IMG/VR virus record: IMGVR_UViG_2711768076_000018
DNA: 15,816 bases
Direction: 5' to 3' (one strand)
From: a virus
Lineage: Duplodnaviria > Heunggongvirae > Uroviricota > Caudoviricetes
Shown here: one piece after another, positions 1 to 15,816 of the stretch
Numbering within the stretch: the first letter of the stretch is position 1
Layout: the number at the start of each line of letters is the position of its first letter
Notes under the pieces: model-generated
What the model was told of the DNA's origin: nothing
Seen by the model: the letters and a program-made list of their open reading frames with translations, nothing else
Databases searched by the model: none
Translations under genes and position numbers: made by a program

Positions 1-1236
1 ATGATTACACATTTCCGTCAAGCCATAGAAGAAACGCTACCCTGGCTCTCCTCTTTTGGCGCTGACCCAGCGGGTGGGATGACCCGTTTACTTTATTCGC
101 CGGAATGGCTGGAAACCCAGCAGCAATTTAAAAAAAGAATGGCAGCAAGCGGGCTGGAAACACGTTTCGATGAAGTGGGGAATTTATACGGTCGCCTGAG
201 TGGCACCGAATATCCACAGGAAGTGGTTCTGAGCGGTTCGCATATCGATACCGTGGTTAACGGCGGTAACCTCGACGGGCAATTCGGCGCGCTGGCGGCG
301 TGGCTGGCAATTGACTGGTTGAAAACGCAATACGGCGCGCCGTTACGTACGGTCGAAGTGGTGGCGATGGCAGAAGAAGAAGGCAGCCGCTTCCCGTATG
401 TCTTCTGGGGCAGTAAAAATATCTTTGGGCTGGCGAACCCTGACGACGTGCGGAATATCTGTGATGCCAAAGGAAATAGTTTTGTCGATGCGATGAAGGC
501 TTGCGGATTTACTCTGCCGAACGCCCCACTAACTCCGCGTCAGGATATTAAAGCCTTTGTTGAACTGCATATTGAACAGGGCTGTGTGCTGGAAAGTAAT
601 GGTCAATCAATTGGCGTGGTGAATGCAATTGTCGGGCAGCGTCGCTATACGGTGACGCTGAACGGCGAATCAAACCATGCAGGCACCACGCCGATGGGTT
701 ATCGTCGTGATACGGTTTACGCTTTCAGTCGCATTTGCCATCAGTCGATCGAAAAAGCGAAAAAGATGGGCGATCCGCTGGTTCTGACCTTTGGCAAAGT
801 AGAGCCGCGTCCGAATACGGTGAATGTGGTACCGGGTAAAACCACGTTCACCATTGATTGTCGTCATACCGACGCTGCCGTGCTGCGCGATTTCACCCAA
901 CAGTTAGAAAACGACATGCGGGCGATTTGCGATGAAATGGACATTGGTATTGATATCGATTTATGGATGGACGAAGAACCCGTGCCGATGAATAAGGAGC
1001 TGGTCGCCACCCTGACAGAATTGTGTGAAAGTGAAAAACTGAATTACCGGGTGATGCACAGTGGTGCCGGGCACGACGCGCAAATTTTCGCGCCTCGCGT
1101 ACCAACCTGCATGATTTTCATTCCCAGCATCAATGGGATCAGCCATAACCCGGCGGAACGCACCAATATTACCGACCTTGCCGAAGGGGTCAAAACGTTG
1201 GCACTCATGCTTTATCAACTTGCCTGGCAGAAATAA
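1..1236 (+). CDS. allC: allantoate amidohydrolase (M20 peptidase family)
   Basis: 411-aa ORF starting at window position 1 (MITHFRQAIEETLPWLSSFG ... LYQLAWQK). Recognised from memory as enterobacterial AllC, essentially full length. ATG start, TAA stop at 1234-1236. Confidence 0.9.
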   Translation: MITHFRQAIEETLPWLSSFGADPAGGMTRLLYSPEWLETQQQFKKRMAASGLETRFDEVGNLYGRLSGTEYPQEVVLSGSHIDTVVNGGNLDGQFGALAAWLAIDWLKTQYGAPLRTVEVVAMAEEEGSRFPYVFWGSKNIFGLANPDDVRNICDAKGNSFVDAMKACGFTLPNAPLTPRQDIKAFVELHIEQGCVLESNGQSIGVVNAIVGQRRYTVTLNGESNHAGTTPMGYRRDTVYAFSRICHQSIEKAKKMGDPLVLTFGKVEPRPNTVNVVPGKTTFTIDCRHTDAAVLRDFTQQLENDMRAICDEMDIGIDIDLWMDEEPVPMNKELVATLTELCESEKLNYRVMHSGAGHDAQIFAPRVPTCMIFIPSINGISHNPAERTNITDLAEGVKTLALMLYQLAWQK

Positions 1237-1246
1237 GGAGTCATAA

Positions 1247-1285
1247 ATGGGATATATCTATAACTTATTTTCAATAACGCATTGA
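1247..1285 (+). pseudogene. orphaned gene start: 12-codon ORF (MGYIYNLFSITH) with strong SD, possibly the truncated 5' end of the gene that normally follows allC
   Basis: GGAG at 1237-1240 lies 6 nt upstream of ATG 1247, and the ORF stops after 12 codons. The spacing (10 nt after the allC stop) is typical of a coupled operon gene. From memory, E. coli allE/ylbA begins MGY, but this is not verified. Confidence 0.3.
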
Positions 1286-1329
1286 TTTAATTAAACAATA
1301 TACACTGCAAGAAGTGCCAAAAATCGCAA

Positions 1330-1353
1330 ATTAACTACACCATTAACTACACC
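1330..1353. repeat. perfect tandem direct repeat, 2 x ATTAACTACACC
   Basis: Read directly: 1330-1341 and 1342-1353 are identical 12-mers in a non-coding AT-rich stretch. Confidence 0.6.
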
Positions 1354-1462
1354 GTTCGGTGCACTGTATGAAACAACGTGGAACAAATAGACACAAGAAA
1401 TATACAGGCGGGTCATCTTTCCAGGGAGAAGCACGCCAATTCATGAGGGGCGTTAATGTCGA

Positions 1463-1629
1463 TATGGGGATCCCCATAACGGGGCTACCTGGCTTTTTTC
1501 CGGTTAAATGTCAATCAGGCTGGTGGGTTTTACATACCCTTGATCACCGTAATGATGATCCAGATCTGCACCTTTCCACCAATGGTGGAAAAGCCCACAG
1601 CAGGCCGCCCAGCCTCCCCCAATGGGGGA
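1463..1629. repeat. cluster of three GC-stem hairpins/palindromes in a non-coding region
   Basis: tATGGGGATCCCCATa (1463-1478, perfect palindrome); TTTCCACC-AAT-GGTGGAAA (1573-1591); TCCCCC-AAT-GGGGGA (1615-1629). The last two share an AAT loop. No convincing ORF covers them. Confidence 0.45.
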
Positions 1630-1884
1630 TTGTGGAAGAATCAACGGGTTAGGCCTTACCAGCAAAAAAGCACATCAACTGTAACGGAAATCGTTATGGT
1701 TGCTGGTGGGCTAAATCATCGTTATGGTGATGCAGCCATGTAGACGTTCCGGTCTCCTCAAATTGAGGTTTCCGAAAATATCAGCGGGTTAGCGATTAAA
1801 CTGACCATTAATTAAACTGCGAAAATGTCGTAGTTGTGAGGGGTGTAGCCAACCCATTTTTGGAACGTCGGGAATATCAACCAG

Positions 1885-2178
1885 TTACCGCCGCAACCGC
1901 TCCGGCTTCTTCCAGTGGTAAGTAATTTTTTCTTTCTCCTGGTACATCTCCACGCGGCGACGATATGACAACAACTCCAGAACTCTGGTGCGTATATTGC
2001 GTATATCCACGCCGTTAAGCTCGATACCGTCACGGCGCATCACCTCAGCCACCACACGCGCGTAATTTTTGGCTATCACGCTGTCCGGCTGCGTGGCCTC
2101 CTGTTTGCCTGCTTCCTGGCTGATTCCGGTAACGCGGCGGATTATTTTTAGTAGTTCGGTTTCGCTCATTCTCGTCAT
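1885..2178 (-). CDS. hypothetical protein (97 aa), last gene of packaging operon
   Basis: ATG at 2178 overlaps the TerL stop (ATGA overlap), suggesting translational coupling. No family recognised. Confidence 0.5.
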   Translation of the reverse strand: MTRMSETELLKIIRRVTGISQEAGKQEATQPDSVIAKNYARVVAEVMRRDGIELNGVDIRNIRTRVLELLSYRRRVEMYQEKEKITYHWKKPERLRR

Positions 2179-3836
2179 ACCCCATCAAACGCCGCAAGCC
2201 GCTCTTTGTGGCTGTCGCTCATATCAAATGCAAATTCCTCATGCTCTGCCTGGAATGTGCCAAACGCCATCAGCGCCGCAACGCTCGGGTCTATCTTGTT
2301 GGATGATTTTTTCTTGTTCGGCTTGATATTGGCGTTCGCGTCACTCTGCATCACAACATTACTCATTGACCAGGCCAGCACCGGATCGCCACGATGCACA
2401 ATCACCTTCCGGTTAACAAAAACTTCGAACGATTTCGCCGCCGGACTGAAACGAAGGTATGTTTGCGGGAACGGCTCCACCTCAAATCCTGCCCCCTGTA
2501 GCTGCGTCCTCAGGTGCGTGGCGTTCCATGTATCGAAGCCCACCAGCCTGATATTGAAATTCTCTGCATCCGCCATGATGTCATCACGGATACGGTCATA
2601 ATCAATGCAGTCACCCGGTGTTGTGCGTATCCAGCCCGCCTTTACCCACTGGCGATAGATGGCGCGGTTTTTATTGGCGGGGTTCTGTAGCTGAAATTCC
2701 GGCAGATAGTGACGGGAAACCAGCATAATCTTTTTACCGACCGGAAAGGCATAGCACACGCTGGAAATATCGCTGGTTGATGATAAGTCCAGCCCCGCGT
2801 AGCACTCCTGACCGTATAAATCCGCCTCCGCGAACGTTCCGGCGCACTCCGCCCATGCACCGTTACCCATCCACGGCGTAGCCCCCTGACACCAGATATT
2901 GAATCGCTTGGTGAGCATTTCCACCCACTGCGACGGAATACCCCGCGCTTTCTGGATGGTTGAGGCCAGTTTTTCACGATCGACGGAAACATCGATATTG
3001 GGATTCGCCTTTATCCACATCGCCGGATCGTCAACCTCGCTTTCATCATCCAGCTCGTAAATCAGCACGAACATGGATTCGTTCACCTCTTCACCATCCA
3101 GTATCTGGCAGCAATAGTCATAGTGTTGTTTACAGGCTGAAACAACGTTGCTCCCCGATGTGGTGATGGCAAATAACAGCCCCTCCGGACGCGCCCCCAT
3201 TCCCAGTTCAAGCGCGGAATAAACCCCGTTGTCAGGGTGCAGGTGATATTCATCCACAATGGCAAGACTCGGGTTTGTACCTTCAATGGTTGCCGCTTTT
3301 GCTGCCAGTGGCTTTAACAGGCTGTTGGTTTTCGGGTGTATCACCTTGTGTGCCTGAATATTTACCCGCTTTCGTAACGGTCGGGATAAAAGGCACATCT
3401 GACGCGCATCATCAAACACGATCCGCGCCTGATCACGACTCACGGCGGCGGTGTAAATATCCTGCTGCCCGTTTTCCATAACCAGAAACCAGTTAGCCAG
3501 GATAGCGGCGACCGTGGATTTGGCATTTTTTCGCGGCACTTCAATGAATGCGCTGGTGTATTTGCGCCGTCCGGTGGCCTTAACCTTAAAGCCCAGGATG
3601 CACGCAAAGGCGAACTGCTGCCACGGCTCCAGCTCAATGGGGCTACCGCGCATTGCGCCTTTTACGTGCGGACACACCCTGGAAAAGGCAATAAACCGCT
3701 CCACGACCTCCGGATCGAACGTGTAAAGGGGGTTTTCAAGGTCAGAAAAATACCGTTTAACGGCCTGTTTCAGTCGTTTACAGGCCGTAATTTTGCCGTT
3801 TTTTACGCCTTCTGCGTACTCATGCCAGGCGGTCAA
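2175..3836 (-). CDS. terL: terminase large subunit (HK97-like Terminase_1 family ATPase/nuclease)
   Basis: 553-aa ORF with typical large-terminase length and motifs. The ORF-track start at 3836 is a TTG codon preceded by GAGGA; no in-frame ATG lies nearby. Confidence 0.85.
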   Translation of the reverse strand: MTAWHEYAEGVKNGKITACKRLKQAVKRYFSDLENPLYTFDPEVVERFIAFSRVCPHVKGAMRGSPIELEPWQQFAFACILGFKVKATGRRKYTSAFIEVPRKNAKSTVAAILANWFLVMENGQQDIYTAAVSRDQARIVFDDARQMCLLSRPLRKRVNIQAHKVIHPKTNSLLKPLAAKAATIEGTNPSLAIVDEYHLHPDNGVYSALELGMGARPEGLLFAITTSGSNVVSACKQHYDYCCQILDGEEVNESMFVLIYELDDESEVDDPAMWIKANPNIDVSVDREKLASTIQKARGIPSQWVEMLTKRFNIWCQGATPWMGNGAWAECAGTFAEADLYGQECYAGLDLSSTSDISSVCYAFPVGKKIMLVSRHYLPEFQLQNPANKNRAIYRQWVKAGWIRTTPGDCIDYDRIRDDIMADAENFNIRLVGFDTWNATHLRTQLQGAGFEVEPFPQTYLRFSPAAKSFEVFVNRKVIVHRGDPVLAWSMSNVVMQSDANANIKPNKKKSSNKIDPSVAALMAFGTFQAEHEEFAFDMSDSHKERLAAFDGV

Positions 3837-4176
3837 GCTCGTCCTCTTCCTCTGTTTCCGGTGGATTTCTGCGGCGACTTACCGGGTCAAAACCCAGCAA
3901 AGAAGCCATTTTGATCATTATTCTTTCAGCGTCAGCCTTTGCGCTCAGGGCGGGGTTTCTGCTCTCGCTGCCCTGACTGTTAACAATGCTGAACCCGCGC
4001 GTGGCAAGGTCTTCGACGGCTTTGCGGTATATGGAGTAGTTAACGCAATACAGCTCCAGATTGCTCCAGTCGGCGGGAGTAAGGTCTTCCCGTCCGGAAA
4101 GCTGGCGCGATTTTTCCTTCCACTGCCTGACCGCGATTTCATCCAGGTAAGCGGGGGCTTTTGGTGGTCTTGCCAT
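3820..4176 (-). CDS. terS: terminase small subunit (P27-like family)
   Basis: The C-terminal 119 aa (MARPPKAPAYLDEIAVRQW ...) look like a small terminase. The 47 codons upstream to the ORF-track start (4317) have odd composition and rare codons, so ATG 4176 is preferred. Confidence 0.65.
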   Translation of the reverse strand: MARPPKAPAYLDEIAVRQWKEKSRQLSGREDLTPADWSNLELYCVNYSIYRKAVEDLATRGFSIVNSQGSESRNPALSAKADAERIMIKMASLLGFDPVSRRRNPPETEEEDELDRLA

Positions 4177-4464
4177 GTTCTTTTTTCGCCCAATTATTTT
4201 CAAAAAAATTCCCGTGCACAAAAATTTGAGGAGGCGGTCGGTGTCCGGCAGGGACGGTTTCGTCCTGAAAACCACCCCCACCCCCTCTGACGGCCTCACC
4301 AGCGATTGCGAAAACATTCCATGACCTCGCGGTCACGGTCGGTTAATTGCTTCGCTGTGGTGCGTTCTGTGCGCCCTGTCCTGTTGGCTTTGTGCCCTGT
4401 CTCCTGTGTCTTCCATAAGTCACGCTGCCTTATCAGTCCACGTATCAGCCTGGTTTGCTCCTGT
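4177..4464. other. HNH-TerS intergenic region, candidate cos/packaging site
   Basis: About 290 bp gap containing hairpin GGACGgtttCGTCC (4251-4264) and C-tract CCACCCCCACCCCCTC (about 4272-4287). In HK97-type cos phages the cos site lies between the HNH gene and terS. Confidence 0.3.
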
Positions 4465-4475
4465 TCAGTCATCAT
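4296..4475 (-). CDS. possible small basic protein (about 59 aa) overlapping the HNH 3' end
   Basis: In-frame ATGs at 4481/4475/4472 overlap the last HNH codons (MMTEQEQTRLIRGLIRQRDLWK ...). The SD is weak, so this is speculative. Confidence 0.25.
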   Translation of the reverse strand: MMTEQEQTRLIRGLIRQRDLWKTQETGHKANRTGRTERTTAKQLTDRDREVMECFRNRW

Positions 4476-4905
4476 CGCCATACATCCAGTCGTTACGGTG
4501 TGCTGCCCGTTCTTCCTGTTCGCGATACATGCCCGCCTTACGGTTCGCTTTCGTGGCTGGATCTTCCCGTGTCGTCTTACGGTTGTGGCACGTCTGGCAC
4601 AATGCCTGGTGGTTCCACTCAGGCCAGAAGAGAACATCACCGCCGCCATTGATGGGGATGATGTGATCCACCACAAGAGCTGGCGTATAAATCCCCTTAG
4701 CCAGACAACGCACGCATAACGGGTTTTTGCTCAGGTACAGGGCGCGGTATTTGTCCCACTGTCGGGAATACCCGCGCGCGCGGCGGTGTCCCCGTCTGGC
4801 ATCCTCTGCACGCCATACAGCCCGTCTGTGCTCTTCACACTTGCCGGACTTCACGCGCTTATTACAGCCCGGCTCAGTGCATCGCCTTAATGGTTGCCAC
4901 GGCAT
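4465..4905 (-). CDS. HNH endonuclease (terminase-associated)
   Basis: 146 aa with Cys-rich N-terminus and an HNH motif (DHIIP ... NHQALCQTCHNRKT). ATG 4905 overlaps the stop of the upstream gene (ATGA). Confidence 0.85.
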   Translation of the reverse strand: MPWQPLRRCTEPGCNKRVKSGKCEEHRRAVWRAEDARRGHRRARGYSRQWDKYRALYLSKNPLCVRCLAKGIYTPALVVDHIIPINGGGDVLFWPEWNHQALCQTCHNRKTTREDPATKANRKAGMYREQEERAAHRNDWMYGDDD

Positions 4906-5207
4906 CAGTACACCCCCACATCACGATAAACCGACCAGAGCGCAGAAATAGCCATAGGCAGTTCAGACTGCTCCACTGGTGAAACTGCTTCCCTGTTCTC
5001 GTACAGGAAAGCGATGTACATCAGGCAACCAACACGCATTGCCGGGGTAAATTCCAGCCCGTCTTCAAAACGTTTCCCGATATGCTTCTGGCAGGCTTCC
5101 AGCGCCGCATCGGTATACATTTTCAGAAGTTCGCCTTCACCGGATAAATCATCATCAAGTCGAAGATGTGCCCTGACTTCATCAGGTGTAATTCTGGCTT
5201 CACTCAT
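4905..5207 (-). CDS. head-tail connector / DNA-packaging protein, gp6-like
   Basis: About 100 aa from ATG 5207 (MSEARITPDEV ...) with a strong SD (AGGGAG) just after the portal stop. The ORF-track start at 5270 is GTG and less likely. Confidence 0.65.
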   Translation of the reverse strand: MSEARITPDEVRAHLRLDDDLSGEGELLKMYTDAALEACQKHIGKRFEDGLEFTPAMRVGCLMYIAFLYENREAVSPVEQSELPMAISALWSVYRDVGVY

Positions 5208-6414
5208 CTTTTCTCCCTTTAATTTCCACAGTCTGTTTCCATGCCTGGCTGAACTCATCACCACCTTCACGCGGCGGCATACCCTCGCGTTCGCGAGCTT
5301 CGTTCGGATTCATGATCCCGCTCTTAATCCCTTTCTCATACGTGGCATAACGTTCGGTGGGTGTGGCGCGCAGTAAATCGGCTGAATCAAACTCAACCAG
5401 ATAACGGGTACCAGGTACGGGAGAAGTCACCAGCAAAGCGGCCTTGATTTGCTGTTCGAAGTTCGCCAGCCACGGGCGCATTGTCATGGTCAGAAATGCG
5501 CGGCTCGCCTCACTGAAATTGCTGTAGGTGCTGTTGCTGTATTCCTGAAGAAAAATCGGCGACACGTTGAACATCCTGGCGATGTCTTCAATGGAGAAGC
5601 GACGGGAGGCCAGCCATTCCGCATCCTGGTTACTCATCCCCAGCTGCCTGTAATCCATGCCCCCTTCAAGGATTGGCGTTTTTCCGGCATTTTTCGCCCC
5701 CTTGTAGCGTTCCAGTGCGTCTAATGCCTGTTTACCTTTCACGCCGTCCAGCCATTCACCTGACGTGATAATCCCTGCCGCCATCATGCCATCTTTCATA
5801 ATGCTGGCTCCGTGACGCTGTTGAGCAAGGCCAAGCCCCAGCGCCTCACGGCAAATCGTGACGGGGGAACGCCCCAGAAAGCCATCATCCGAGGCATAGC
5901 GGAGATGCAGAACTTCTTCCTGTAAATACGTGCGCACCGTTCCTGTACAGGGTTCGGTGATGGTATAGCGGTATTTGTGTGTGCCTGTGCGTTCCGGTAC
6001 AACACACCCCGGCGCATAAGGATGAAGTGATTTTGGCTGCCCGTCCCGCCCCCACTCAATAACCGCATAGGCGTTACCGTTCAGCAGGCAGTGACGCATC
6101 ATTGTGCGTTTAAACTGGTAAGGTGTCAGGCACGAATTAGGCTGCTCATTCAGCAGAATATCTACCGGGTGACTGTCCAGCCATTCCCGCGCCTCTCTGC
6201 CCTTATCATTGCGTACCAGATACAGGTAACACGGCATCGTGGCCACCGCCTCAGCGATGACAGAAACCGCGTTCATCACAGCAGGCAATGATTCAGCCGT
6301 CCCGGCAGAAACATATTCTCCGGATCCGGTATTTGGTACACCAGACAACGCCAGAAAATCATCAATGGACAGGTTACGCAGATCGCTTTTTTTACGACTA
6401 AAAGGCCACCACAT
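5200..6414 (-). CDS. portal protein (HK97 family)
   Basis: About 404 aa from ATG 6414 (MWWPFSRKK ...), 1 nt after the protease stop and preceded by a GGGGG SD. The ORF-track start at 6504 is TTG. Size and composition fit a portal. Confidence 0.85.
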   Translation of the reverse strand: MWWPFSRKKSDLRNLSIDDFLALSGVPNTGSGEYVSAGTAESLPAVMNAVSVIAEAVATMPCYLYLVRNDKGREAREWLDSHPVDILLNEQPNSCLTPYQFKRTMMRHCLLNGNAYAVIEWGRDGQPKSLHPYAPGCVVPERTGTHKYRYTITEPCTGTVRTYLQEEVLHLRYASDDGFLGRSPVTICREALGLGLAQQRHGASIMKDGMMAAGIITSGEWLDGVKGKQALDALERYKGAKNAGKTPILEGGMDYRQLGMSNQDAEWLASRRFSIEDIARMFNVSPIFLQEYSNSTYSNFSEASRAFLTMTMRPWLANFEQQIKAALLVTSPVPGTRYLVEFDSADLLRATPTERYATYEKGIKSGIMNPNEAREREGMPPREGGDEFSQAWKQTVEIKGRKDE

Positions 6415-6415
6415 A

Positions 6416-6976
6416 TCACACCCCCGCCAGTTCAGCCCAGCGATGACGATTATTTCCTGCCGGGCGTAATTCAGGGTACTGTGCAAACAACGAACGGTGG
6501 GCAATCTCCACGCCGGATTCGGGATAAGCAGGCATCGATGTTATCGTGATTTCACGGAGTTCTGCTGCGGTTACAGTACGCAGATACGGTTTTTGCGCGA
6601 TATTCCACTCCTCGCATAATGCGCGAAAGCCAAAGCTCATTCCTGTAATATCGCCACGTTCCACCAGCGTAAGCACATCTTTTCCAAGCTGGGTATTTGG
6701 CGGTGTCAGTTCAAAACGTAGCCCGGTGTTATCCTCAGTCAGTACCAGTGAGCCGGATTTGGTACGCCCCAGCAGTTGGGTATAGTCATGCTCATACAGA
6801 CAGCGCACATCATTACCTGCCGCCAGATAGTCAGCAAAAGCCCCCGGCGTGAACTGTTCGCGAAACTCGTCCCAGATAATTTCTGAAAGGCTGTTCCAGC
6901 GAACGGCATAACCCACCAGTTTTTTATCGCTGGCGGTCAGTTCAGATGTACGGATTTCAAAATCGGTGTTTTTCAT
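6416..6976 (-). CDS. prohead maturation protease (HK97 family)
   Basis: 186 aa from ATG 6976 (MKNTDFEIRTSEL ...) with GGAG SD. Conserved GMSFGF-type motif region. The ORF-track N-terminal extension to 7201 overlaps the capsid gene and is unlikely. Confidence 0.85.
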   Translation of the reverse strand: MKNTDFEIRTSELTASDKKLVGYAVRWNSLSEIIWDEFREQFTPGAFADYLAAGNDVRCLYEHDYTQLLGRTKSGSLVLTEDNTGLRFELTPPNTQLGKDVLTLVERGDITGMSFGFRALCEEWNIAQKPYLRTVTAAELREITITSMPAYPESGVEIAHRSLFAQYPELRPAGNNRHRWAELAGV

Positions 6977-6996
6977 CGGTGTACTCCATAAAGCTG

Positions 6997-7020
6997 AAAA
7001 AGGAGGCCGAAGCCCCCTTT
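6997..7020 (-). terminator. intrinsic terminator/attenuator immediately after the capsid gene
   Basis: Minus-strand RNA reads AAAGGGGGC-UUCG-GCCUCCUUUUU: a GC stem with a UUCG tetraloop and a U5 tract, 6 nt downstream of the capsid stop and upstream of the protease SD. Confidence 0.6.
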
Positions 7021-7025
7021 GCTCA

Positions 7026-8171
7026 TTACTTGCCAGCCTGAATTTCCAGAATCTTGATGGCGTTCGAATCCACCACACCACCGCCCAGATATTTCTGGGT
7101 ATAGATGTTAATGAATCCAGGCTCGCTGAAATCCGGACGGGTACGCGTACCGGTTTTATGGTCAACGATGAAATAACCGCGCTTAAAGTCACCGACTGCA
7201 ATCACACCGTCCGGCATAAATTCCAGATATTCAACCGGAAGCCCCAGCAGAGAATCAGGATCACCAGCCTGTAAACGATCGCGCCAGATGTAATCACCAG
7301 TGGCATTTTTCAGTTTTTGTGCGGAGGCGGCTGTATTTGAGTTCATCACCCATACAGCTTTTTTGCGGTACTTATTGCGCAGCGTAAATTTCAGGTCAAT
7401 CAGCATATCGGCGCTGAGACTGCCAGTCACTTTTTTCGTCTGGAGCGTACCGAAAGGACGGGTTTTGTCATTATCCGTAGTGCGCGGGAAAGTCAGGAAA
7501 CCTTTGGCTTTTTTCTCGCCATCACCGGAAACCAGATCCGTTTCTTCGGTATCAACGAAAGTGTCGCCAATTTCAGAAGATAACCAGCCCATAATATCGA
7601 CTTCGGAAAAATCGATAATTTCCTGAGTGGTTTTCGGGTAAGCGTAGATCGGATACAGGCGGATACTGACTTCATTCAGTTTTGGGGTTGCCGTCTGGTT
7701 ACGTGCCGCACCTTCTTCGCCGTGTCCCACGACCGCCCCCCCGGCAGAAACCAGTTGCTTAAATTCATTACTGTGAATGGTTTTAACAGTACAGATTTTA
7801 CGCATCACCGACTCATCAGAAAGCTGACGCATAATTTCTCTGTTCAGTTCCGGGATAACCGTATAACCACCATCAGCCGGAACACTGCCGGACAGGTTGC
7901 GGGTTTCCCCGGTCAGAATGTAAGAGCGTAGCTCATTTTTGGTGATTTTATCTTCGACGGGAACACCAGGCTGGTTACGTTCTTCATCAGCCACAGACTC
8001 GAGGCGGGAAATTTCTGTGTCGAGGGAATCGGCTTTTGCACGCAGTTCATCAAACTGTTTGCCTTCGTCATCGGTTAGACTGCGGTTTTCACTGTCGGCT
8101 TTTTCCAGCAGGGATCGCATCTGGTTTTTCAGGGCGGTTTTTTGCTGGCGGAGTTCGATTAATTTCTTCAT
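7026..8171 (-). CDS. major capsid protein (HK97 fold) with N-terminal coiled-coil delta domain
   Basis: 381 aa, ATG at 8171. The N-terminal 60 aa are coiled-coil-like (MKKLIELRQQKTALKNQ ...), followed by a capsid-shell domain with HK97-like C-terminal motifs. Confidence 0.9.
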   Translation of the reverse strand: MKKLIELRQQKTALKNQMRSLLEKADSENRSLTDDEGKQFDELRAKADSLDTEISRLESVADEERNQPGVPVEDKITKNELRSYILTGETRNLSGSVPADGGYTVIPELNREIMRQLSDESVMRKICTVKTIHSNEFKQLVSAGGAVVGHGEEGAARNQTATPKLNEVSIRLYPIYAYPKTTQEIIDFSEVDIMGWLSSEIGDTFVDTEETDLVSGDGEKKAKGFLTFPRTTDNDKTRPFGTLQTKKVTGSLSADMLIDLKFTLRNKYRKKAVWVMNSNTAASAQKLKNATGDYIWRDRLQAGDPDSLLGLPVEYLEFMPDGVIAVGDFKRGYFIVDHKTGTRTRPDFSEPGFINIYTQKYLGGGVVDSNAIKILEIQAGK

Positions 8172-8354: not shown

Positions 8355-8392
8355 CCAGAATCACCGAACAACCTGGAACAACCACGAACAAA
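8355..8392 (-). promoter_or_regulatory. three 10-bp-phased TTGTTC repeats upstream of the capsid operon (candidate activator site)
   Basis: Plus-strand GAACAA at 8366, 8376 and 8386. On the minus strand this reads TTGTTCGTGGTTGTTCCAGGTTGTTCGG. The 18-mer TTGTTCGTGGTTGTTCCA is identical to 14651-14668. Confidence 0.5.
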
Positions 8393-8444: not shown

Positions 8445-8693
8445 TTATTGTTTCACTGGCTCCCGCATTCTGCGTCTTATTTTCCACAAATATTCGATCA
8501 TCGCTTCCACCTGCTCACGGTTGGTTGCGAAAATTTCCCCGGTCAGTGAGCTACGCAGAAAATCATGATGATCCACAAAAAATAACGCATCGGAAGAAAG
8601 CAACCGACGATATTTTTTTGCTGTCGTGGTTTCCAGATCATCAAAACCATGAAGCTTTTTATGTTGCTGAACTTCTTCAAATGTCACTGGCAT
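8445..8693 (-). CDS. hypothetical protein (82 aa)
   Basis: ATG at 8693 overlaps the end of the ProQ/FinO gene by 10 nt. No family recognised. Confidence 0.5.
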   Translation of the reverse strand: MPVTFEEVQQHKKLHGFDDLETTTAKKYRRLLSSDALFFVDHHDFLRSSLTGEIFATNREQVEAMIEYLWKIRRRMREPVKQ

Positions 8694-9214
8694 GTATCCC
8701 CCTTTGCTGCCCGGCGCTGGCGCTTGTGCTTCTCATTCAGCACCATCAGCCGTGTTTCTGCCTCCTGCTGTTCCTGTGGTGTCACTTCCCCACATGGCTG
8801 GCCTTTCAGGTCGTAACGTGCGCCACCAGCTATCAGGGCGCGGTAATAGCGCGGAGACTGCGCATAGGATGCCAGCGTCGCACGTAATACCCCCGGCCCG
8901 AATGCCAGCCCCCTGACGGCGATATCCTGCATCAGGTCGTCGAATATCCCCACCTTAAGCGGCTTCGGTGCTTTATGGCTGAATAAGTCAGGCCACATCT
9001 CAGTGAGGCGGTTAACGCGTCGGCGGTTTTTGCGCTGCCTTTTGGTCATATGCTGCCACGGTGTCGCCCCTGTGGGCTTCTGCTGTGCGTTCTGATTGCC
9101 GGGTATCACTTTATGCGCCGATGTGGTTTTATCCTGCTCTTGCGCCGCCTGCGTCGTTTTCTGCGGCGTGCCGTAAATGCCTTTCGGCTTCCGGTTAATG
9201 GTCAGCGTTGTCAT
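8684..9214 (-). CDS. ProQ/FinO-domain RNA-binding protein
   Basis: 176 aa. The segment PLKVGIFDDLMQDI ... LRATLASYAQSPRYYRALIAGGARYDLKGQPCGEVTPQEQ matches the ProQ N-terminal FinO-like domain from memory (PLKIGIFQDL ... [22 protein letters not shown]). Basic low-complexity N-terminus. ATG 9214 with GGGGAAGG SD. Confidence 0.75.
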   Translation of the reverse strand: MTTLTINRKPKGIYGTPQKTTQAAQEQDKTTSAHKVIPGNQNAQQKPTGATPWQHMTKRQRKNRRRVNRLTEMWPDLFSHKAPKPLKVGIFDDLMQDIAVRGLAFGPGVLRATLASYAQSPRYYRALIAGGARYDLKGQPCGEVTPQEQQEAETRLMVLNEKHKRQRRAAKGDTCQ

Positions 9215-9250
9215 GCCTTCCCCTGTAATTACTCTGTTCGCTGTTGTGAA

Positions 9251-9676
9251 TTAAAACGGTATGTTATCCCCGTACGGGTCATCGTGCTGGCTTGTCTGTT
9301 GTTTTGCCCTGTTCAGTGCGTCAGTGGCCTGGCCCTGTTGACCTTTTTTGCCGCCCGGTCGCGCCGTTCGCGCACTGATTACGCTGTCTGCAATAACCTG
9401 CCAGCCCTGCCGCGTTTCCCCGTTCTGGCCTGTCCACTGGCTCACCTGCATGTTACCCGCCACGCTCACCAGTTCGCCTTTGTGGTGTTTTGCCAGTGCG
9501 TCGGCCTGTCTGCCAAACGCCAGGACAGATAACCACATCGTCGCCGTTCCGTCATCTGCCTGGCTGCACGGCAGGGGAACCGCCATACTCGCCATCGCCA
9601 TTTGTGTCCCTTTGCTGGTGGTCTTTAACTGCGGGTCAGCCACCAGCCGCCCGTAAGCCGCTATCTGTGCTGTCAT
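9251..9676 (-). CDS. ssb: single-stranded DNA-binding protein
   Basis: 141 aa with an OB-fold N-terminus (YGRLVADPQLKTTSKG ...), a Gly/Gln-rich linker and an acidic tip DDPYGDNIPF (compare DDDIPF in E. coli SSB). ATG 9676 overlaps the upstream stop. Confidence 0.85.
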   Translation of the reverse strand: MTAQIAAYGRLVADPQLKTTSKGTQMAMASMAVPLPCSQADDGTATMWLSVLAFGRQADALAKHHKGELVSVAGNMQVSQWTGQNGETRQGWQVIADSVISARTARPGGKKGQQGQATDALNRAKQQTSQHDDPYGDNIPF

Positions 9677-9963: not shown

Positions 9964-10192
9964 CTTCACCTGTTCACCTTTTGAGATTTTCCCTTTTTAT
10001 TCATAATGTTAAGGGGTGAACAGTTTCACAAAAACTATTCACCAACTGTTCACCACTGTTCACCCTTAAAGCTCAATAAATAATCAAAAAGGTGAACAGT
10101 GAATAGTTTGGTGAACAGTTCACAAATAACTGTTCACCCTATAATGTACTGATATAAAAGATATTTATAACAGGGTGAACAGTGGTGAACAG
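9964..10192. repeat. replication origin: iteron array of 9-bp GGTGAACAG / CTGTTCACC repeats flanking AT-rich DNA
   Basis: Perfect copies of GGTGAACAG at 10015, 10091, 10110, 10174 and 10184. Perfect inverse copies CTGTTCACC at 9970, 10046, 10056 and 10130. Degenerate copies at 10035 and 10099. AT-rich stretch at 10140-10170. The array abuts the primase stop at 10206. Confidence 0.75.
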
Positions 10193-10205: not shown

Positions 10206-12020
10206 TTAATTTTTGCTGTCGTCATTTGTGACCGATGCACATGATGGCATCCAGTCTTCTGAATCCTCTGTCAGTGTCACATTTGAACGCAAACCGTGCT
10301 TCGTTTTCCGTTTTATATACTCCCTGCCATATTCCGCCATTGCCCCCGGCATATCTTTACCGAAGCGCGTCAGTGTTACAGGTTTACCGAATCCGTGTGC
10401 CCTCATATATGCCAGATAGGCGTGATAAAGATACCTGCGCGGACTGAACGGAATAATTTCGGCATTACCCACTAACAGACCATCACACATTACCGACGAC
10501 ATGAGATAGCCACAGAAGTCCACCAGCGAATCGCCCTCGCGTTTTATCACCAGAGCTTCTTCTGATTTCTGCTGCTCATACAGCAGGCGTTTAGCTTCGT
10601 CCTGGTCAGAAAAACGAGTAAGCAGATGGCGAATCACAACCGCCAGCTCTCCTTCTATTTTTTCTGCCAGCATGGGGTCGCGCTCGTTCTCCGGTACAAC
10701 CTCCGAAAAATTGAATATCACCCGACGACGTGAGATCCCCCCGCTGCGGTCACTGAATGACATGGCGTTATTGTTCACCGCCAGCACGACCGCCTGAATG
10801 CGTGTTGAGTAGGGGGCTTTATGCTTCGGGTCGATTGCCACCTTGTCACCGCCTGTAATAGCCTTAATTCCTGCGCCATCACCAGCGTAGCGGGTCATAT
10901 CCGGCATGATAATCAGCGAAAAGCCAACCACTAACGCGCGTTCCCTTGCATCTTCCAGCGCCTTCATGCTTGCCGATACTGTGTTGGCCTTACCCGCCAG
11001 CATGGTGCAAATCTCCGCCATCACGCTTTTACCACTTCCCCCTGGACCTGTTACCTCAATGAATAACTGCCAGTCGTACCGGTTCGCCAGCACCATGAAT
11101 AATGCAGCCAGCACGCGATCCGTCTTGCGGTCATTCTCTGCCACCGAGCAGCGTAACCACTTCCAGAAATTCGGCGCATGTGTTGCCAGCGTTTCCCCCT
11201 CTGCTGGTGGGCTGAAAGGTAATTCACTGGCAATTAACAACCAGTCGTTTTTGTTATGCTCCCGAAAATTACCTGTTCTGGTATCAAATACCCCGTTACT
11301 GAATCCAATCAGGTTACGGGCTGTATTCCCCATTACAGGCAAACTTAACTTCATGGTATCGACCGCCGATTTAATGGCGTTCTGCGAATAGCTGATCTCC
11401 GCATCAATGAAAATCTGCGCCATAGCACGCTGTAACTCTTTATCCTGAATCGGCTCCCATACAACGCCGTTGTAATGGTGAACAGTGTCAGAGTCGGCAT
11501 GAATCGCCAGTTCACCGCCATAATGTGCCAGGAGAACTTCGCCGCGCTGGCTTGCTCCCATCTGGTTAAGCGCCAGTGGTGCGGCGCTGTCTTCTGTTTT
11601 TTTCTTAACAGGAAGCTGAATCACCAGACCATCAGAAAGATTCTGGCGCTCACGGGCCAGATATTCGCGCCAGTTCTGCACCTCCTGGCCGTGCATACCC
11701 TCAGGATAAAAATTTGCATCCTGTACGCCTGCCGCCGCCAGCTTCTGACCAATCGCCTTTATCATTACTGGCGCAAGATATCCGGCCCTGAATATGCGCA
11801 CGGATTTTCTGCCTTCCGGCACAATTTGCAGCTTATCCAGTTCGGATAACTGCTGCTCCCCAAGCCACACAGGAGGCTCATTATCTCCGGCCATACGCGC
11901 GTCATGTTCCTGCCATTGTTTTGCGTGTGACCAGGCATCACTACCCGCAAAAATAATGACTTCTGTTTCTTTGTGTTTTATGCCGCGTGACTGCTGTTTT
12001 ACGTTCGGTGCCAGTTTCAT
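10206..12020 (-). CDS. primase/helicase replication initiator (P4-alpha-like, Walker A NTPase C-terminal domain)
   Basis: 604 aa with Walker A GPGGSGKS in the C-terminal half, of a size typical for satellite or plasmid primase-helicases. ATG 12020 overlaps the upstream stop (ATGA). Confidence 0.85.
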   Translation of the reverse strand: MKLAPNVKQQSRGIKHKETEVIIFAGSDAWSHAKQWQEHDARMAGDNEPPVWLGEQQLSELDKLQIVPEGRKSVRIFRAGYLAPVMIKAIGQKLAAAGVQDANFYPEGMHGQEVQNWREYLARERQNLSDGLVIQLPVKKKTEDSAAPLALNQMGASQRGEVLLAHYGGELAIHADSDTVHHYNGVVWEPIQDKELQRAMAQIFIDAEISYSQNAIKSAVDTMKLSLPVMGNTARNLIGFSNGVFDTRTGNFREHNKNDWLLIASELPFSPPAEGETLATHAPNFWKWLRCSVAENDRKTDRVLAALFMVLANRYDWQLFIEVTGPGGSGKSVMAEICTMLAGKANTVSASMKALEDARERALVVGFSLIIMPDMTRYAGDGAGIKAITGGDKVAIDPKHKAPYSTRIQAVVLAVNNNAMSFSDRSGGISRRRVIFNFSEVVPENERDPMLAEKIEGELAVVIRHLLTRFSDQDEAKRLLYEQQKSEEALVIKREGDSLVDFCGYLMSSVMCDGLLVGNAEIIPFSPRRYLYHAYLAYMRAHGFGKPVTLTRFGKDMPGAMAEYGREYIKRKTKHGLRSNVTLTEDSEDWMPSCASVTNDDSKN

Positions 12021-12555: not shown

Positions 12556-13012
12556 GGCTTACATCCTCAGGAAATTTTCTTCTATAACGCGCCTCTGCCA
12601 CATATTCCGCATAATCGGCGGCGATATTCAGTACATCAAGCCCCGTTGATTTATATTCTCTCGTGGAAAGTAAGAAAAAAGCCGCTCTAATAAGCTCTGG
12701 CATTGACGAAAGCGCATCAGCCGCATCATCAGGAACGCCGGAAAATTCCTGTTTCAGGGAATTAAAACGATCATCACGCATAACCCCCCCATTTTCACAA
12801 TCAGCAATCAGGATGGCTTTAGCCTCATTCAGCGCCATATCCGCACTAAGTTGCATAACAGCCAGTGAGTGAGGAACGAAAGCCCCGGCATATTCTGTTT
12901 CGCTGGTGGCGCGCTTATGCGCCTTGTCTGCGATAACAGAAATATCAATCAGCGCGTGCATCAGCGTTTTGATGGCTTCGGCGGCTGCGTCCGGACGGGT
13001 GTTATTGCACAT
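12548..13012 (-). CDS. hypothetical protein (154 aa)
   Basis: ATG 13012 overlaps the upstream stop by 11 nt. Confidence 0.5.
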   Translation of the reverse strand: MCNNTRPDAAAEAIKTLMHALIDISVIADKAHKRATSETEYAGAFVPHSLAVMQLSADMALNEAKAILIADCENGGVMRDDRFNSLKQEFSGVPDDAADALSSMPELIRAAFFLLSTREYKSTGLDVLNIAADYAEYVAEARYRRKFPEDVSHA

Positions 13013-13208
13013 GGCGTACCCCCTGACGAATACGGGCAGCGAATACCATCACGCAGCCATCAGGAGATTGCTGACGCGCTTCCTGTTCGCTGGTGGCCTC
13101 AATGGTAATCACGCGCGGTTGTGCCGTGCTCAGGGCGATAAAACGCCAGATGTATTTATTCAGGTTGTACGAGTCCCGCCCTTGCGGGTGTCTGGTATAA
13201 TTTCTCAT
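13002..13208 (-). CDS. hypothetical small protein (68 aa), first gene of the leftward replication operon
   Basis: ATG 13208 with GAGG SD. This is the in-frame C-terminal part of a 374-aa ORF-track call that is itself implausible. Confidence 0.4.
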   Translation of the reverse strand: MRNYTRHPQGRDSYNLNKYIWRFIALSTAQPRVITIEATSEQEARQQSPDGCVMVFAARIRQGVRHVQ

Positions 13209-13407
13209 AGCTGCCTCGATACTTCTGCTATCGTTGGTGGTTAGAAGCCCGTTGGTGTTGGTAGCACCTGCGGGCTTTGTCTTTTCATCGATTACCTTAA
13301 TAAAGGTGTCAGCCACTATACTAGTGACAGGTGTCAGCCACGTCAATAGTGTTTTTCTATTTTCTTGTGTGTATACTGTCAGCCACCTAATAACAAGGAA
13401 ATCAGAT
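13209..13407. promoter_or_regulatory. divergent promoter/operator region with three TGTCAGCCAC repeats
   Basis: TGTCAGCCAC at 13307-13316, 13332-13341 and 13377-13386. The third copy overlaps a TATACT -10-like hexamer upstream of the plus-strand gene at 13408. On the minus strand the repeats read GTGGCTGACA and contain -35-like TGACA. Confidence 0.45.
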
Positions 13408-13587
13408 ATGGCAACGAAAGCAGTTAATGGAAAATCCAAAAAACTTGAGGCACGAGTACCCCATGCAATAGCTGACGCTGTAGAAAATTTAAAGGAAGAA
13501 GGCGAAAGCACTGGGCAATTTATCGTTTCGGCGCTTGAAGGTGAGATCAAACGCCGCCAGCGCCGAAAGGCCAAAGAGCAGGAATAA
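13408..13587 (+). CDS. small ribbon-helix-helix-like DNA-binding protein (59 aa), candidate regulator
   Basis: ATG 13408 with AAGGAA SD. The predicted strand-helix-helix pattern (KLEARVPHAIADAVENLKEEGESTGQFIVSALEGEI) and basic C-tail fit an RHH protein. It is one of only two plus-strand genes in the element and diverges from the replication operon. Confidence 0.55.
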   Translation: MATKAVNGKSKKLEARVPHAIADAVENLKEEGESTGQFIVSALEGEIKRRQRRKAKEQE

Positions 13588-13644
13588 CCATCACCAGCGC
13601 CGTGGTGTAAGGTATTACGGCGCATTGCTATGCAGGACAACACA

Positions 13645-13818
13645 ATGACCGATAAAGAATTGACCAAAACATTATCACCGACACGGAAAAGACGACGCAG
13701 AAAGATAGAGCATGAATCAGAAAGATTCGCGCCATGTGCTTTTGCCCTTGAGCAATTCCTTAAAGAGTACAGGGAAAAGCGCTCATTGCAGGTATGGCAA
13801 CGAACTGAACCAGACTGA
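13645..13818 (+). CDS. hypothetical small basic protein (57 aa)
   Basis: ATG 13645 preceded by AGGA at 7-nt spacing. Followed by a plus-strand terminator at 13885-13913. Confidence 0.35.
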   Translation: MTDKELTKTLSPTRKRRRRKIEHESERFAPCAFALEQFLKEYREKRSLQVWQRTEPD

Positions 13819-13884
13819 TTGCATTGCCCACCAGCCGCAAATGTGGCATTGTTGGTGATGCTTTTGTTTTCCCTTGTTCCCACT

Positions 13885-13913
13885 GGCGACCCTTTTGCGG
13901 TCGCCTTTGTTTT
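13885..13913 (+). terminator. intrinsic terminator for the plus-strand small-gene unit
   Basis: GGCGACC-cttttgc-GGTCGCC hairpin followed by TTTGTTTTGCTT. Confidence 0.65.
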
Positions 13914-13951
13914 GCTTGTTATCCGGCAATAGTGGCGCTTCACCACACGGT

Positions 13952-14038
13952 TGATATAATTCCCCTGCACTGATCCATTTTTTTCGCAGCAGGTTAATTG
14001 TTCAGAAAGGCGGTTCCTTATCGGGGCCGCTTTTTTTA
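13952..14038 (+). ncRNA. candidate small RNA (about 70 nt) from an extended -10 promoter to an intrinsic terminator
   Basis: TGaTATAAT at 13952-13960 is a consensus -10 with extended TG motif; the -35 is poor. Terminator hairpin GCGGTTCC-ttatc-GGGGCCGC plus T7 lies at 14010-14037. No ORF with an RBS lies between. Confidence 0.3.
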
Positions 14039-14150
14039 TGCCTGAAAATACCCGATAACATGGCTTTTTAGTTTCACCAGGACGAACGAAGCCCCGCCCC
14101 TGTTCGGGCGTATATCCAGTATTCATGGTTAGATCTCTGTGTTAGTGGAT

Positions 14151-14178: not shown

Positions 14179-14367
14179 TTAGTGAACTGCCTCGCGGCTG
14201 TCCTTCCATGCCAGAACTTCGGATAAAGACCAGCCAACGGAACGACCGCCGAGTTTACGCCGTGATGGGAATTGTCCGGTCTTCTCCAGGCGATACCGAC
14301 ATGAGCGGCTCAGGCCTGTAAGTTGCTGACATTCTTTTTCACGTATAAAGCGATCTGTGCTTAACAC
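14179..14367 (-). CDS. alpA: AlpA-family (Xis-like winged-helix) transcriptional regulator
   Basis: 62 aa with the AlpA signature: a helix-turn-helix around TGLSRS and a downstream GWSLSEV motif (compare VGW in CP4-57 AlpA). GTG start at 14367 with a strong AAAGGGGGAA SD. Sits immediately downstream of int. Confidence 0.8.
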   Translation of the reverse strand: MLSTDRFIREKECQQLTGLSRSCRYRLEKTGQFPSRRKLGGRSVGWSLSEVLAWKDSREAVH

Positions 14368-14560: not shown

Positions 14561-14650
14561 TTACGCGTTAAAGCGTTATTCGCTAATGTATAAAAAACCA
14601 GTCACACAAATAAAATCAGTCACTTATAAACCTGTGTACTTTTTCGCCTC

Positions 14651-14700
14651 TTGTTCGTGGTTGTTCCACGTTGTTTCACATTGTTCGCCGTTGTATCTGT
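14651..14700 (+). promoter_or_regulatory. five tandem 10-bp-phased TTGTTC-type repeats just 3' of int
   Basis: TTGTTCGTGG TTGTTCCACG TTGTTTCACA TTGTTCGCCG TTGTATCTGT. The first 18 nt are identical to the array upstream of the capsid operon (8374-8391, opposite strand). Confidence 0.5.
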
Positions 14701-14742: not shown

Positions 14743-15816
14743 TTATTTTCTTCTGGCTGCTGGTAGTGCGGTTACGTTTTCATGTGCTCCCGCCAGTATC
14801 CCTAACCGCTCCGTCCACATATCCAGCGCATTGCGTTTCGCATCCAGATAACGGGAGTGATTATAGACTCGTTGCATCCCTGGCATCTGGTGTCCTGTAA
14901 GCTGCTCCACGACATGCGGATCAACGCCTAAATCGTTCAGCATGGTTGTAAAGGTGCGCCGGATGTCATGCAGTGACCAGTGGGGGTGATTAAGCCTCCT
15001 GTGCGCTAATCTTCCATACTGCGATACGCTGGCCTCCTGTTTCACTTCCCCCAGCAATAAGCCCGTGTGCCTGTTCTGCTCCACCAGCTGCGTGATGAAC
15101 GGCAGTATTGCTTCCGGTATAGGCCGGAATATGGCTACCTTCGTTTTGCTGTGCTCCTTCGGAACGGTCCAGAGCATTTCGGTAAAATCCCACTCGCCGA
15201 TCTCCGATAACCTAAGTTCGACCGTCCGGCATCCGAACACAATCAGGAGGCGGATTAGCGCGATGTAGTAGGGGGAAAATATTTTTTTGTCCAGTGCCTG
15301 CAATAATTCGCCCAGCTCTTTATTGCTTAAGACACGTTCGCTTATATCCGGTTTTTTCCCAACGTCCGCTACGTTCAGATCATCGAGAACGTTACTGATT
15401 GCATAGCGCCGCCTCCGGCAGTACTTAAGCGCCTGTTTGCATGTCTGTAGCACGAATCCGGCAGTAACAGGTGTTCGCTTTGCCACCTGGTCAAAGCAGG
15501 CCAGCCAGTGCCGTAGCTCGCATTTATCCAGCGGCATAGCACCAATTTTGGTGATTATGTTTTTATTGATCCGGCTTTTCAGTGATTCGTAATCTGTGCG
15601 CTTTTCCTTTGCGTACGACTCAAGCCAATAGGTGAGCGCATCGCCAACCGTTACAGGCTTTAACGCTTCCTGCATGGTGTAATTCAGTTCATAGCGTGGA
15701 TTTTTCCCCTCAGCCAGCCATGCGCGACACTGGGCGGCTTTTTCCCTGGCTGCTTTCAGACTCAGATCGGGATAATTTCCCAGCTTAACGCGTTCAGGTT
15801 GTGTCCCTCTTCCCAT
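14743..15816 (-). CDS. int: tyrosine integrase (P4/CP4-57 type), 5'-partial
   Basis: 357 aa visible, with the C-terminal catalytic region (HDIRRTF ... YNHSRY). The region LGNYPDLSLKAAREKAAQCRAWLAEGKNP aligns, from memory, to around residues 55-85 of P4-type integrases, so about 45 N-terminal codons probably lie beyond the window. Confidence 0.85.
   Translation of the reverse strand: MGRGTQPERVKLGNYPDLSLKAAREKAAQCRAWLAEGKNPRYELNYTMQEALKPVTVGDALTYWLESYAKEKRTDYESLKSRINKNIITKIGAMPLDKCELRHWLACFDQVAKRTPVTAGFVLQTCKQALKYCRRRRYAISNVLDDLNVADVGKKPDISERVLSNKELGELLQALDKKIFSPYYIALIRLLIVFGCRTVELRLSEIGEWDFTEMLWTVPKEHSKTKVAIFRPIPEAILPFITQLVEQNRHTGLLLGEVKQEASVSQYGRLAHRRLNHPHWSLHDIRRTFTTMLNDLGVDPHVVEQLTGHQMPGMQRVYNHSRYLDAKRNALDMWTERLGILAGAHENVTALPAARRK

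Follow-up and report, generated by a model that had tools for sequence, protein, structure and literature searches.

The truncated reading frame behind allC

In the DNA analysed here (the window, 15,816 nt, IMG/VR record IMGVR_UViG_2711768076_000018), the allC gene is followed at once by a well-formed gene start that leads into only 12 codons, which raises the question of what became of the next gene of the allantoin operon. Direct reading of the window gives allC as ORF 1-1236 with its stop TAA at 1234-1236, a GGAG Shine-Dalgarno (SD) motif at 1237-1240, and an ATG at 1247-1249, 10 nt past the allC stop. The frame from 1247 (ATG GGA TAT ATC TAT AAC TTA TTT TCA ATA ACG CAT TGA) translates as MGYIYNLFSITH* and ends at TGA 1283-1285; in all of this the window agrees with the initial annotation. 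The features around this start, with the evidence for each, are as follows.

1-1236, + strand: allC (allantoate deiminase), intact over its full length, second in the allD-allC-allE operon (ORF list; annotation in all matching genomes)
1237-1240, + strand: GGAG Shine-Dalgarno motif of allE, stranded on the allC side (identical to the empty-site GGAGTCATAAATG)
1241-1248, no strand: bacterial core-type half-site B, TCATAAAT, left of the crossover and taking in the first two bases of the allE ATG (attL and attR compared with the empty site)
1247-1285, + strand: hybrid 12-codon ORF MGYIYNLFSITH* (reading, Megablast, comparison with empty site and attR)
1249-1255, no strand: GGGATAT, putative 7-bp overlap (crossover) region (identical at attL and attR in four lysogens)
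1256-1263, no strand: element core-type half-site C', ATCTATAA (our reading of the sequences)

The element-free E. coli genome L002 was taken as the reference for the empty site. In this genome the identical SD and ATG start allE, which encodes 261 aa beginning MGYLNNVTGY... (MGYLNNVTGYREDLL...), and GGAGTCATAAATGGGATAT runs on into TTAAATAACGTCACC.... The earlier proposal that the stub is the orphaned start of the gene after allC, as well as the statement that K-12 allE starts MGY, is thereby borne out. A Megablast search with window 1000-1700 found matches in 5,345 of 5,426 complete E. coli genomes, and in approximately 5,300 the match stops at 1255, or at 1264 if three mismatches are allowed, while the window junction is read through in only 11. 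Homology of the element-free genomes to the window breaks off after nt 9 of allE (window 1255), by which the alignment check proposed earlier turns the estimate of "about 9 nt" into an exact figure.

Because the approximately 5,300 element-free genomes match only to 1255 or 1264 and 11 continue, the stub is not a chance ORF. It reads as the first 9 nt of allE joined to 30 nt of the left arm of an inserted element, and it is a recombination by-product and no gene. The strong SD and the ATG would also suit a genuine small gene of the element, such as one for a leader peptide, but allE supplies the SD, the ATG and the 6 nt after it, the remainder is an att arm common to the elements at this site, and sister elements at other sites have a different sequence at the stub position. 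An assembly artefact would have to account for the identical junction in 11 independent complete genomes. Both readings, which we regard as having almost no chance of being right, were rejected on that junction, the attL-attR comparison, and the four lysogens described below. The orphan gene start is instead explained as an attL junction, at which a 7-bp crossover would have taken the start codon from allE.

The far junction and the proposed crossover site

The window stops inside int, and attR was taken from near-identical lysogens that are 99.0-99.5% identical over the element. In strain AST19 (locus L001), which shares 99.4% identity across the whole window, int (409 aa) borders on a 174-bp arm, past which the sequence runs ...CACTATTTGATAAAA GGGATAT TTAAATAACGTCACC..., the remainder of allE, and the far junction in this and the other lysogens reads TTGATAAAA-GGGATAT-TTAAATAAC. 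Written as left half-site, overlap and right half-site, attL is TCATAAAT / GGGATAT / ATCTATAA, attR is TGATAAAA / GGGATAT / TTAAATAA, and the empty site is TCATAAAT / GGGATAT / TTAAATAA. The sole perfectly shared block of the three sites is the 7-bp GGGATAT at window 1249-1255, which corresponds to allE nt 3-9, i.e., the G of ATG plus codons 2-3. It is present at both attL and attR in all four lysogens (AST19, TUM1886, 2012C-4502, and AR_0085), and with it the duplicated att core that the initial annotation had suggested seeking at the other end has been located. In AST19 the two copies are spaced 14,913 bp apart, of which the window contains 14.56 kb.

The most fitting interpretation of GGGATAT is an overlap region within a tyrosine-recombinase core, inside which strand exchange would have taken place. 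The junctions fit recombination between an element site TGATAAAA-GGGATAT-ATCTATAA and a bacterial site TCATAAAT-GGGATAT-TTAAATAA, from which the bacterial attB would be TCATAAATGGGATATTTAAATAAC and the predicted attP of the excised circle TTGATAAAAGGGATATATCTATAAC. Joining the left part of attL with the right part of attR in silico yields the K-12-type sequence exactly. Beyond int, the window's own genome is expected to continue with CACTATTTGATAAAAGGGATATTTAAATAACGTCACC and then an intact allE body. As for the half-sites, B (TCATAAAT) matches the TNATAAAN half-sites of sister elements, while the reverse complement of C', TTATAGAT, agrees with the other half-site TGATAAAA at 5/8 positions, a poor inverted repeat.

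An exact scan of viral contigs with the predicted attP TTGATAAAAGGGATATATCTATAAC gave 0 matches, and a shorter attP gave 2 matches among metagenome contigs, both with unrelated flanks and attributable to chance; no excised form was found in either set. Recombination at the GGGATAT core is what we infer from the junctions alone, and the missing attP is an absence of data and no argument against it.

The arms also show an ordered structure. A repeat search found that the int-proximal arm holds a 79% identical direct copy of the 75-nt left-arm repeat at 1329-1403, and this P' arm repeat is composed of two tandem ATTAACTACACC units followed by GAAACAA-type motifs. The two copies (window 1329-1403; L001 35010-35084) are probable arm-type Int sites. 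An identical 7-bp overlap, flanking core-type sites and a 75-nt arm repeat are together the features of lambda/P4 tyrosine-integrase attachment sites. The arm repeat lies within the following region.

1286-1884, no strand: noncoding left end, conserved in sister PICIs elsewhere (repeat search; sister comparison)

This noncoding left end of approximately 600 bp is conserved between PICIs at different sites (cf. locus L003, 7281-7850), and it may contain the packaging (cos) site of the HNH/terminase system. As well, (G/C)GAACAAC-type repeats occur in four places, namely the left arm (window 1370-1386), upstream of the capsid operon (8365-8391), the int-alpA gap (14649-14690, inverted), and the right arm (L001 35057-35129), and they are candidate binding sites of AlpA (activator/excisionase) or Int. 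Table S1 of PMC6092414 gives the reverse complement of the arm repeat, CGGTGTAGTTAATGGTGTAGTTAATT, as the 'att site core' for EcCIDI14, and for this reason arm repeats, and not crossover sites, may be what some of the published PICI 'cores' represent.

Gene content and identity of the inserted element

In all likelihood, the window carries the attL of a capsid-forming PICI (cf-PICI) of approximately 14.9 kb that sits in the start of allE, splits the gene and probably leaves it silent. The genes and other features of the element are listed below.

1885-2178, - strand: phrog_1561, small conserved gene of unknown function, last of the packaging operon (PHROGs)
2175-3836, - strand: large terminase, TerL (Pfam TerL_ATPase and TerL_nuclease, E 1.8e-52)
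3820-4317, - strand: small terminase of the P27/Terminase_4 type, TerS (Pfam PF05119, E 4e-23)
4465-4905, - strand: HNH endonuclease, packaging cofactor (Pfam PF01844)
4905-5270, - strand: head-tail connector, gp6-type (Pfam PF05135)
5200-6504, - strand: portal protein (Pfam PF04860, E 2e-91)
6416-7201, - strand: prohead serine protease, S78 (Pfam PF04586, E 1e-44)
7026-8171, - strand: HK97-type major capsid protein (Pfam PF05065, E 8e-61)
8684-9676, - strand: ProQ/FinO-family protein (8684-9214) and SSB (9251-9676) (Pfam)
9970-10192, both strands: ten GGTGAACAG iterons, just 3' of the primase gene (repeat search)
10206-12020, - strand: D5-type primase/helicase, PICI pri-rep (Pfam D5_N, DUF5906, Pox_D5)
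14179-14367, - strand: AlpA-family regulator (Pfam PF05930, E 3e-18)
14743-15816, - strand: tyrosine integrase, clipped by the window end (Pfam Arm-DNA-bind_3, Phage_int_M, Phage_integrase)

The capsid, protease, portal, connector, HNH, TerS, and TerL genes follow one another in order on the - strand from 8171 down to 2175, each of the seven with a Pfam match, and the true start of the small terminase is probably near 4177, going by the PGAP call in AST19. Regulatory and replication modules are present as alpA and as pri-rep plus iterons; the iteron cluster at 9970-10192 probably marks the replication origin, in line with other PICIs, and AlpA probably also acts as excision cofactor, judging from PMC6092414. 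A further ORF carries DUF4222 (Pfam), and the others are small PHROGs of unknown function or Icd-like. No tail or lysis genes were detected among the element ORFs of at least 50 aa with Pfam and PHROGs, and an Rfam scan of the window found no known RNA family. No close relative was found among phage records either, the top match showing 76% identity over 35% of the element and being a 16.5-kb 'induced prophage', apparently a satellite as well.

The integrase possesses, according to Pfam, arm-binding, central and catalytic domains and is of the P4/lambda type. Its part in the window, residues 53-409, comprises 357 residues that are 100% identical to the AST19 Int, in which the full-length gene encodes 409 aa; the first 52 int codons, the P arm and attR would occupy approximately 330 bp past the window end. 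The window ends at 15814-15816 on an internal int ATG (Met53), where phoQ- and yifB-type Ints have Thr, and the source annotation probably calls a 357-aa Int lacking most of the arm-binding domain. Another open frame, of 374 aa at window 13002-14126 (-), has homologues only for its last ~92 residues (Icd-like/'repressor' PHROGs), is split in AST19 into 295 aa and 88 aa, and is overlapped by small + strand YlcI/YnfO-like genes; its long N-terminal extension is probably noncoding.

The element matches the proteobacterial cf-PICI definition in size, gene content and order (10.1101/2022.09.08.507074; 10.1101/2025.02.11.637232). With an integrase at one end and 14,913 bp in AST19, it lies within the cf-PICI range of ~10-18 kb. 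The prototype of the cf-PICIs is EcCIEDL933 (Alqurainy et al., 10.1101/2022.09.08.507074), and like the cf-PICIs described there the element is of ~15 kb, has int, alpA, and pri-rep with origin-like iterons, carries its own HK97 capsid, protease, portal and connector and then hnh-terS-terL in the same order, and is devoid of tail genes, lysis genes and a close phage relative. Its integration site may set it apart from them, six attB sites having been reported for E. coli cf-PICIs (10.1101/2022.09.08.507074). As a class, cf-PICIs are also marked by induction through a helper phage, by small capsids of their own to which helper tails are joined, and by attB sites that prophages do not use.

A second point of comparison is EcCICFT073, a classical E. 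coli PICI at ycfD(roxA)-phoQ (Fillol-Salom et al. 2018, PMC6092414). PICIs of this type share the integrase family (90-97% amino-acid identity), the P/P' arms and the core layout with the window element. The published EcCICFT073 core GGACATATTT (Table S1, PMC6092414) is the reverse complement of AAATATGTCC, which is shared at phoQ/roxA, and this agreement validates the approach by which the cores were read here. The EcCICFT073 type differs in the overlap and the adjacent ~35 bp of attP, having TATGTCC-TTTTATCAC... instead of GGGATAT-ATCTATAAC..., and its site is intergenic, whereas the window element targets the inside of a gene start. The allC/allE site is missing from the eight E. coli PICI sites listed in 2018 (Table S1, PMC6092414), a list that the allE start would extend.

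Fate of allE

The gene allE is the last of the AllS-activated, anaerobically expressed allD-allC-allE operon (PMC12535856), and K-12 cells from which it has been deleted show a prolonged lag once they have been starved of nitrogen for 24 h (PMC7417836). The element lies inside this operon, between nt 9 and 10 of allE, so placed that the SD, the ATG and two codons stay beside allC and read into element DNA, giving the 12-codon ORF. The body of allE would have been moved 14.9 kb off to adjoin int as TGA TAA AAG GGA TAT..., devoid of start codon, SD and promoter. This frame, TGA TAA AAG GGA TAT TTA..., was observed at attR in 4/4 lysogens (AST19, TUM1886, 2012C-4502, AR_0085), where AAG, behind two in-frame stops, stands in place of the ATG and the SD is absent, the AT of ATG and the SD having stayed at attL. 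In the same four lysogens the remaining 260 allE codons are intact beyond the element, and 257-259 of 261 residues are identical to the element-free reference, with no decay, which fits a recent insertion and equally fits continued use.

In the displaced gene, the first in-frame ATG/GTG/TTG is GTG codon 87, followed by ATG codon 117. A simple sigma-70 scan of the int-proximal arm found no + strand promoter into allE at attR, its single match being on the - strand upstream of int; this null is weak negative evidence, as a promoter may be missed by such a scan. Nearly all element genes, including int beside allE, are on the strand opposite allE. Since attR offers no start, SD, or promoter, and the element genes point away, allE is most likely null or strongly reduced during integration, and AllE, the (S)-ureidoglycine aminohydrolase, would be absent or very poorly made while the satellite is integrated.

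The initial annotation had suggested that the insertion may inactivate or replace allE. Inactivation is plausible, the ATG, the SD and the link to the allD promoter being lost. The idea that the element replaces allE was rejected, given that the body of 260 codons is kept in all four lysogens and that no AllE-like or cupin gene was found in the element with Pfam and PHROGs. The gene appears to be split from allDC, neither deleted nor replaced, and is probably silent.

Standard annotation hides this damage. PGAP lists the decapitated allE as a normal 247-aa CDS and not as a pseudogene, starting it at CTG codon 15 without an SD (L001 35203-35946; L006 and L007; L008 17164-17907), and gene-presence surveys would miss the disruption because of this call. 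The call also bears on whether the insertion could be physiologically neutral, either with AllE still made from the displaced body by non-canonical initiation (e.g., at CTG codon 15) on a transcript from or through the int-proximal arm, or with AllE dispensable as ureidoglycine breaks down spontaneously. In favor of neutrality are the normal CDS in PGAP and the allE body intact in 4/4 lysogens with different satellites, which probably are independent insertions. Ureidoglycine is also reportedly unstable chemically. Production from the displaced body has against it the sequence CCGGTTACCGCGATGATTTA upstream of the CTG, which contains no SD, the lack of a + strand promoter-like site at attR, and two in-frame stops directly upstream of the body. 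The measurable phenotype of the K-12 deletion, a longer post-starvation lag (PMC7417836), stands against dispensability, and on balance we consider neutrality unlikely.

On sequence logic, the locus also has the anatomy of a switch, as allE is parted from its expression signals in such a way that precise excision restores it. Precise Int/AlpA-mediated excision would rebuild the wild-type allE start exactly, because the left part of attL and the right part of attR together make up the wild-type sequence. SpyCIM1 of S. pyogenes, a phage-like chromosomal island that we regard as a relative of PICIs, blocks mutL by inserting into the 5' end of this gene (PMC4689407, PMC3430984). Its tyrosine integrase likewise inserts it at the 5' end of a downstream operon gene, cutting off the promoter, and precise excision restores the gene. 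In SpyCIM1, however, growth-phase-dependent excision and reintegration were shown experimentally, whereas the window element is known from sequence only; the host belongs to a different phylum, the integrase is unrelated, and the E. coli allE site is by contrast rarely occupied.

A switch at allE would mean that the satellite excises under some condition, restores allDCE and reintegrates as SpyCIM1 does at mutL (PMC4689407, PMC3430984). Besides the exact rebuilding of the start, the spontaneous excision and circularisation of E. coli PICIs (PMC6092414) would suit such a role. It is countered by the attP searches of viral and metagenome contigs, which found no episomal form, by an occupancy of only 0.24% of genomes, and by the presence of the same backbone equally at the intergenic phoQ/roxA site, from which the choice of site appears incidental and not selected for allE control. 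We consider this reading highly improbable, and a switch-like role of the allE insertion is possible but unsupported; the preferred reading remains a split gene that is probably silent during integration.

Regulated excision has been demonstrated for prophages that interrupt a host gene, a state termed 'active lysogeny' (for instance phi10403S in comK of Listeria). As in active lysogeny, the host gene here is split by site-specific integration and could be rebuilt by excision, but for the window element this likeness concerns the anatomy only.

Sister elements and the choice of target

The initial annotation regarded integration at a gene 5' end with int at the far end as unusual, and neither point held. 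Int lies ~170 bp from attR, the normal P4/lambda-type position, and it seems far off only in a window that begins at attL and ends within int. As to the 5' end of a gene, a sister element splits yifB, and SpyCIM1 is found in the mutL 5' end (PMC4689407).

The same cf-PICI backbone occurs at the intergenic phoQ/roxA site in FDAARGOS_1249, where it is 98.5% identical from window 1274 on, and inside yifB in E500002, where it cuts off a 174-bp 5' fragment. The phoQ/roxA core reads TGATAAAA-TATGTCC-TTTTATCA, a perfect inverted repeat about a 7-bp spacer, and the yifB core reads TTATAAAA-ATCCGCT-ATTTATAA, the overlaps of both having the same position and length as GGGATAT. The sister elements share a common layout of a 7-bp spacer between inverted TNATAAAN half-sites, and those at phoQ/roxA and yifB possess nearly the same Int with a different 7-bp overlap. 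The comparison of these elements provides a clean natural data set on how such integrases change target.

A group of substitutions at residues 124-142, in the first part of the central core-binding domain, distinguishes the window Int from the phoQ-type Ints and is present in three of the four allE-site Ints. Since it is missing from the AR_0085 Int, and no single residue separates the Ints by site, residues 124-142 were rejected as setting allE specificity. AR_0085 (L008 15720-17130, allE) and TUM9803 (L011 1501-2941, phoQ/roxA) make the closest case: their Ints differ at 7/409 residues (98.3% identity), their int-proximal arms show 2 SNPs in 174 nt up to TTGATAAAA/overlap, and with GGGATAT-ATCTATAAC in AR_0085 and TATGCCC-TTTTATCAC in TUM9803 the difference in attP is confined to the overlap and the left-arm segment beside it. 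In 4/4 cases it is the overlap together with the ~35 bp of left arm adjoining it (GGGATAT-ATCTATAACTTATTTTCAATAAC) that goes with the site.

Because near-identical Ints and arms are found at two sites with only the core segment differing, the simplest explanation would be that the attP core, for the most part, decides which site this PICI integrase family targets. The difference between AR_0085 and TUM9803 could also stem from mosaic recombination after integration, but that would require a crossover no more than 9 bp away from the overlap. Two bolder readings, which are compatible with each other, are that these elements are retargeted by a swap of the 7-bp overlap plus ~35 bp of attP with the protein unchanged, and that allE is under switch control; we give them a small chance. 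If the first were true, these integrases would be naturally 'programmable', with the allE start as one recently gained target; if the second were true, occupancy of allE would reversibly switch the recovery of nitrogen from allantoin, much as SpyCIM1 acts on mutL.

Occupancy of the allE site

The attR junction is present in 13 of the 5,426 complete E. coli genomes (0.24%), with satellites of at least three types. A cf-PICI with a D5 primase occupies it in the window, in the AST strains, and in the E2xxxxx/100xxx human isolates. TUM1886 has a cf-PICI that carries a RepA helicase and a head-closure gene, 2012C-4502 one that combines the capsid module of the TUM1886 type with a DNA primase, and AR_0085 a classical PICI limited to capsid and decoration genes. 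All four occupants that were opened at allC/allE, from 4 of the 13 genomes, are PICIs, and junction queries of this kind miss elements with unrelated ends. Since the occupants differ in type, the allE start is a real, repeatedly used attachment site. The attL junction gave 0 matches in the GTDB representatives (one genome per species), none being seen outside E. coli there, and in a literature search no paper was found linking ylbA/allE with an integration site. Occupation of the allE start is a rare but ordinary event that does not overturn current understanding.

Occupied strains, ~0.24% of complete E. coli genomes, are predicted to be without AllE while the satellite is integrated, and this loss could affect anaerobic allantoin use and recovery from nitrogen starvation. 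Several of them are presumably clinical, possibly ETEC, isolates, as suggested by strain names and human sources. Two of the four inspected lysogens have further lesions in the allantoin cluster, AST19 an internal stop in the allantoin transporter gene allW (L001 40101-40702) and AR_0085 a deletion fusing fdrA and ylbE (L008 1577-3242), which could reflect relaxed selection on the pathway or coincidence.
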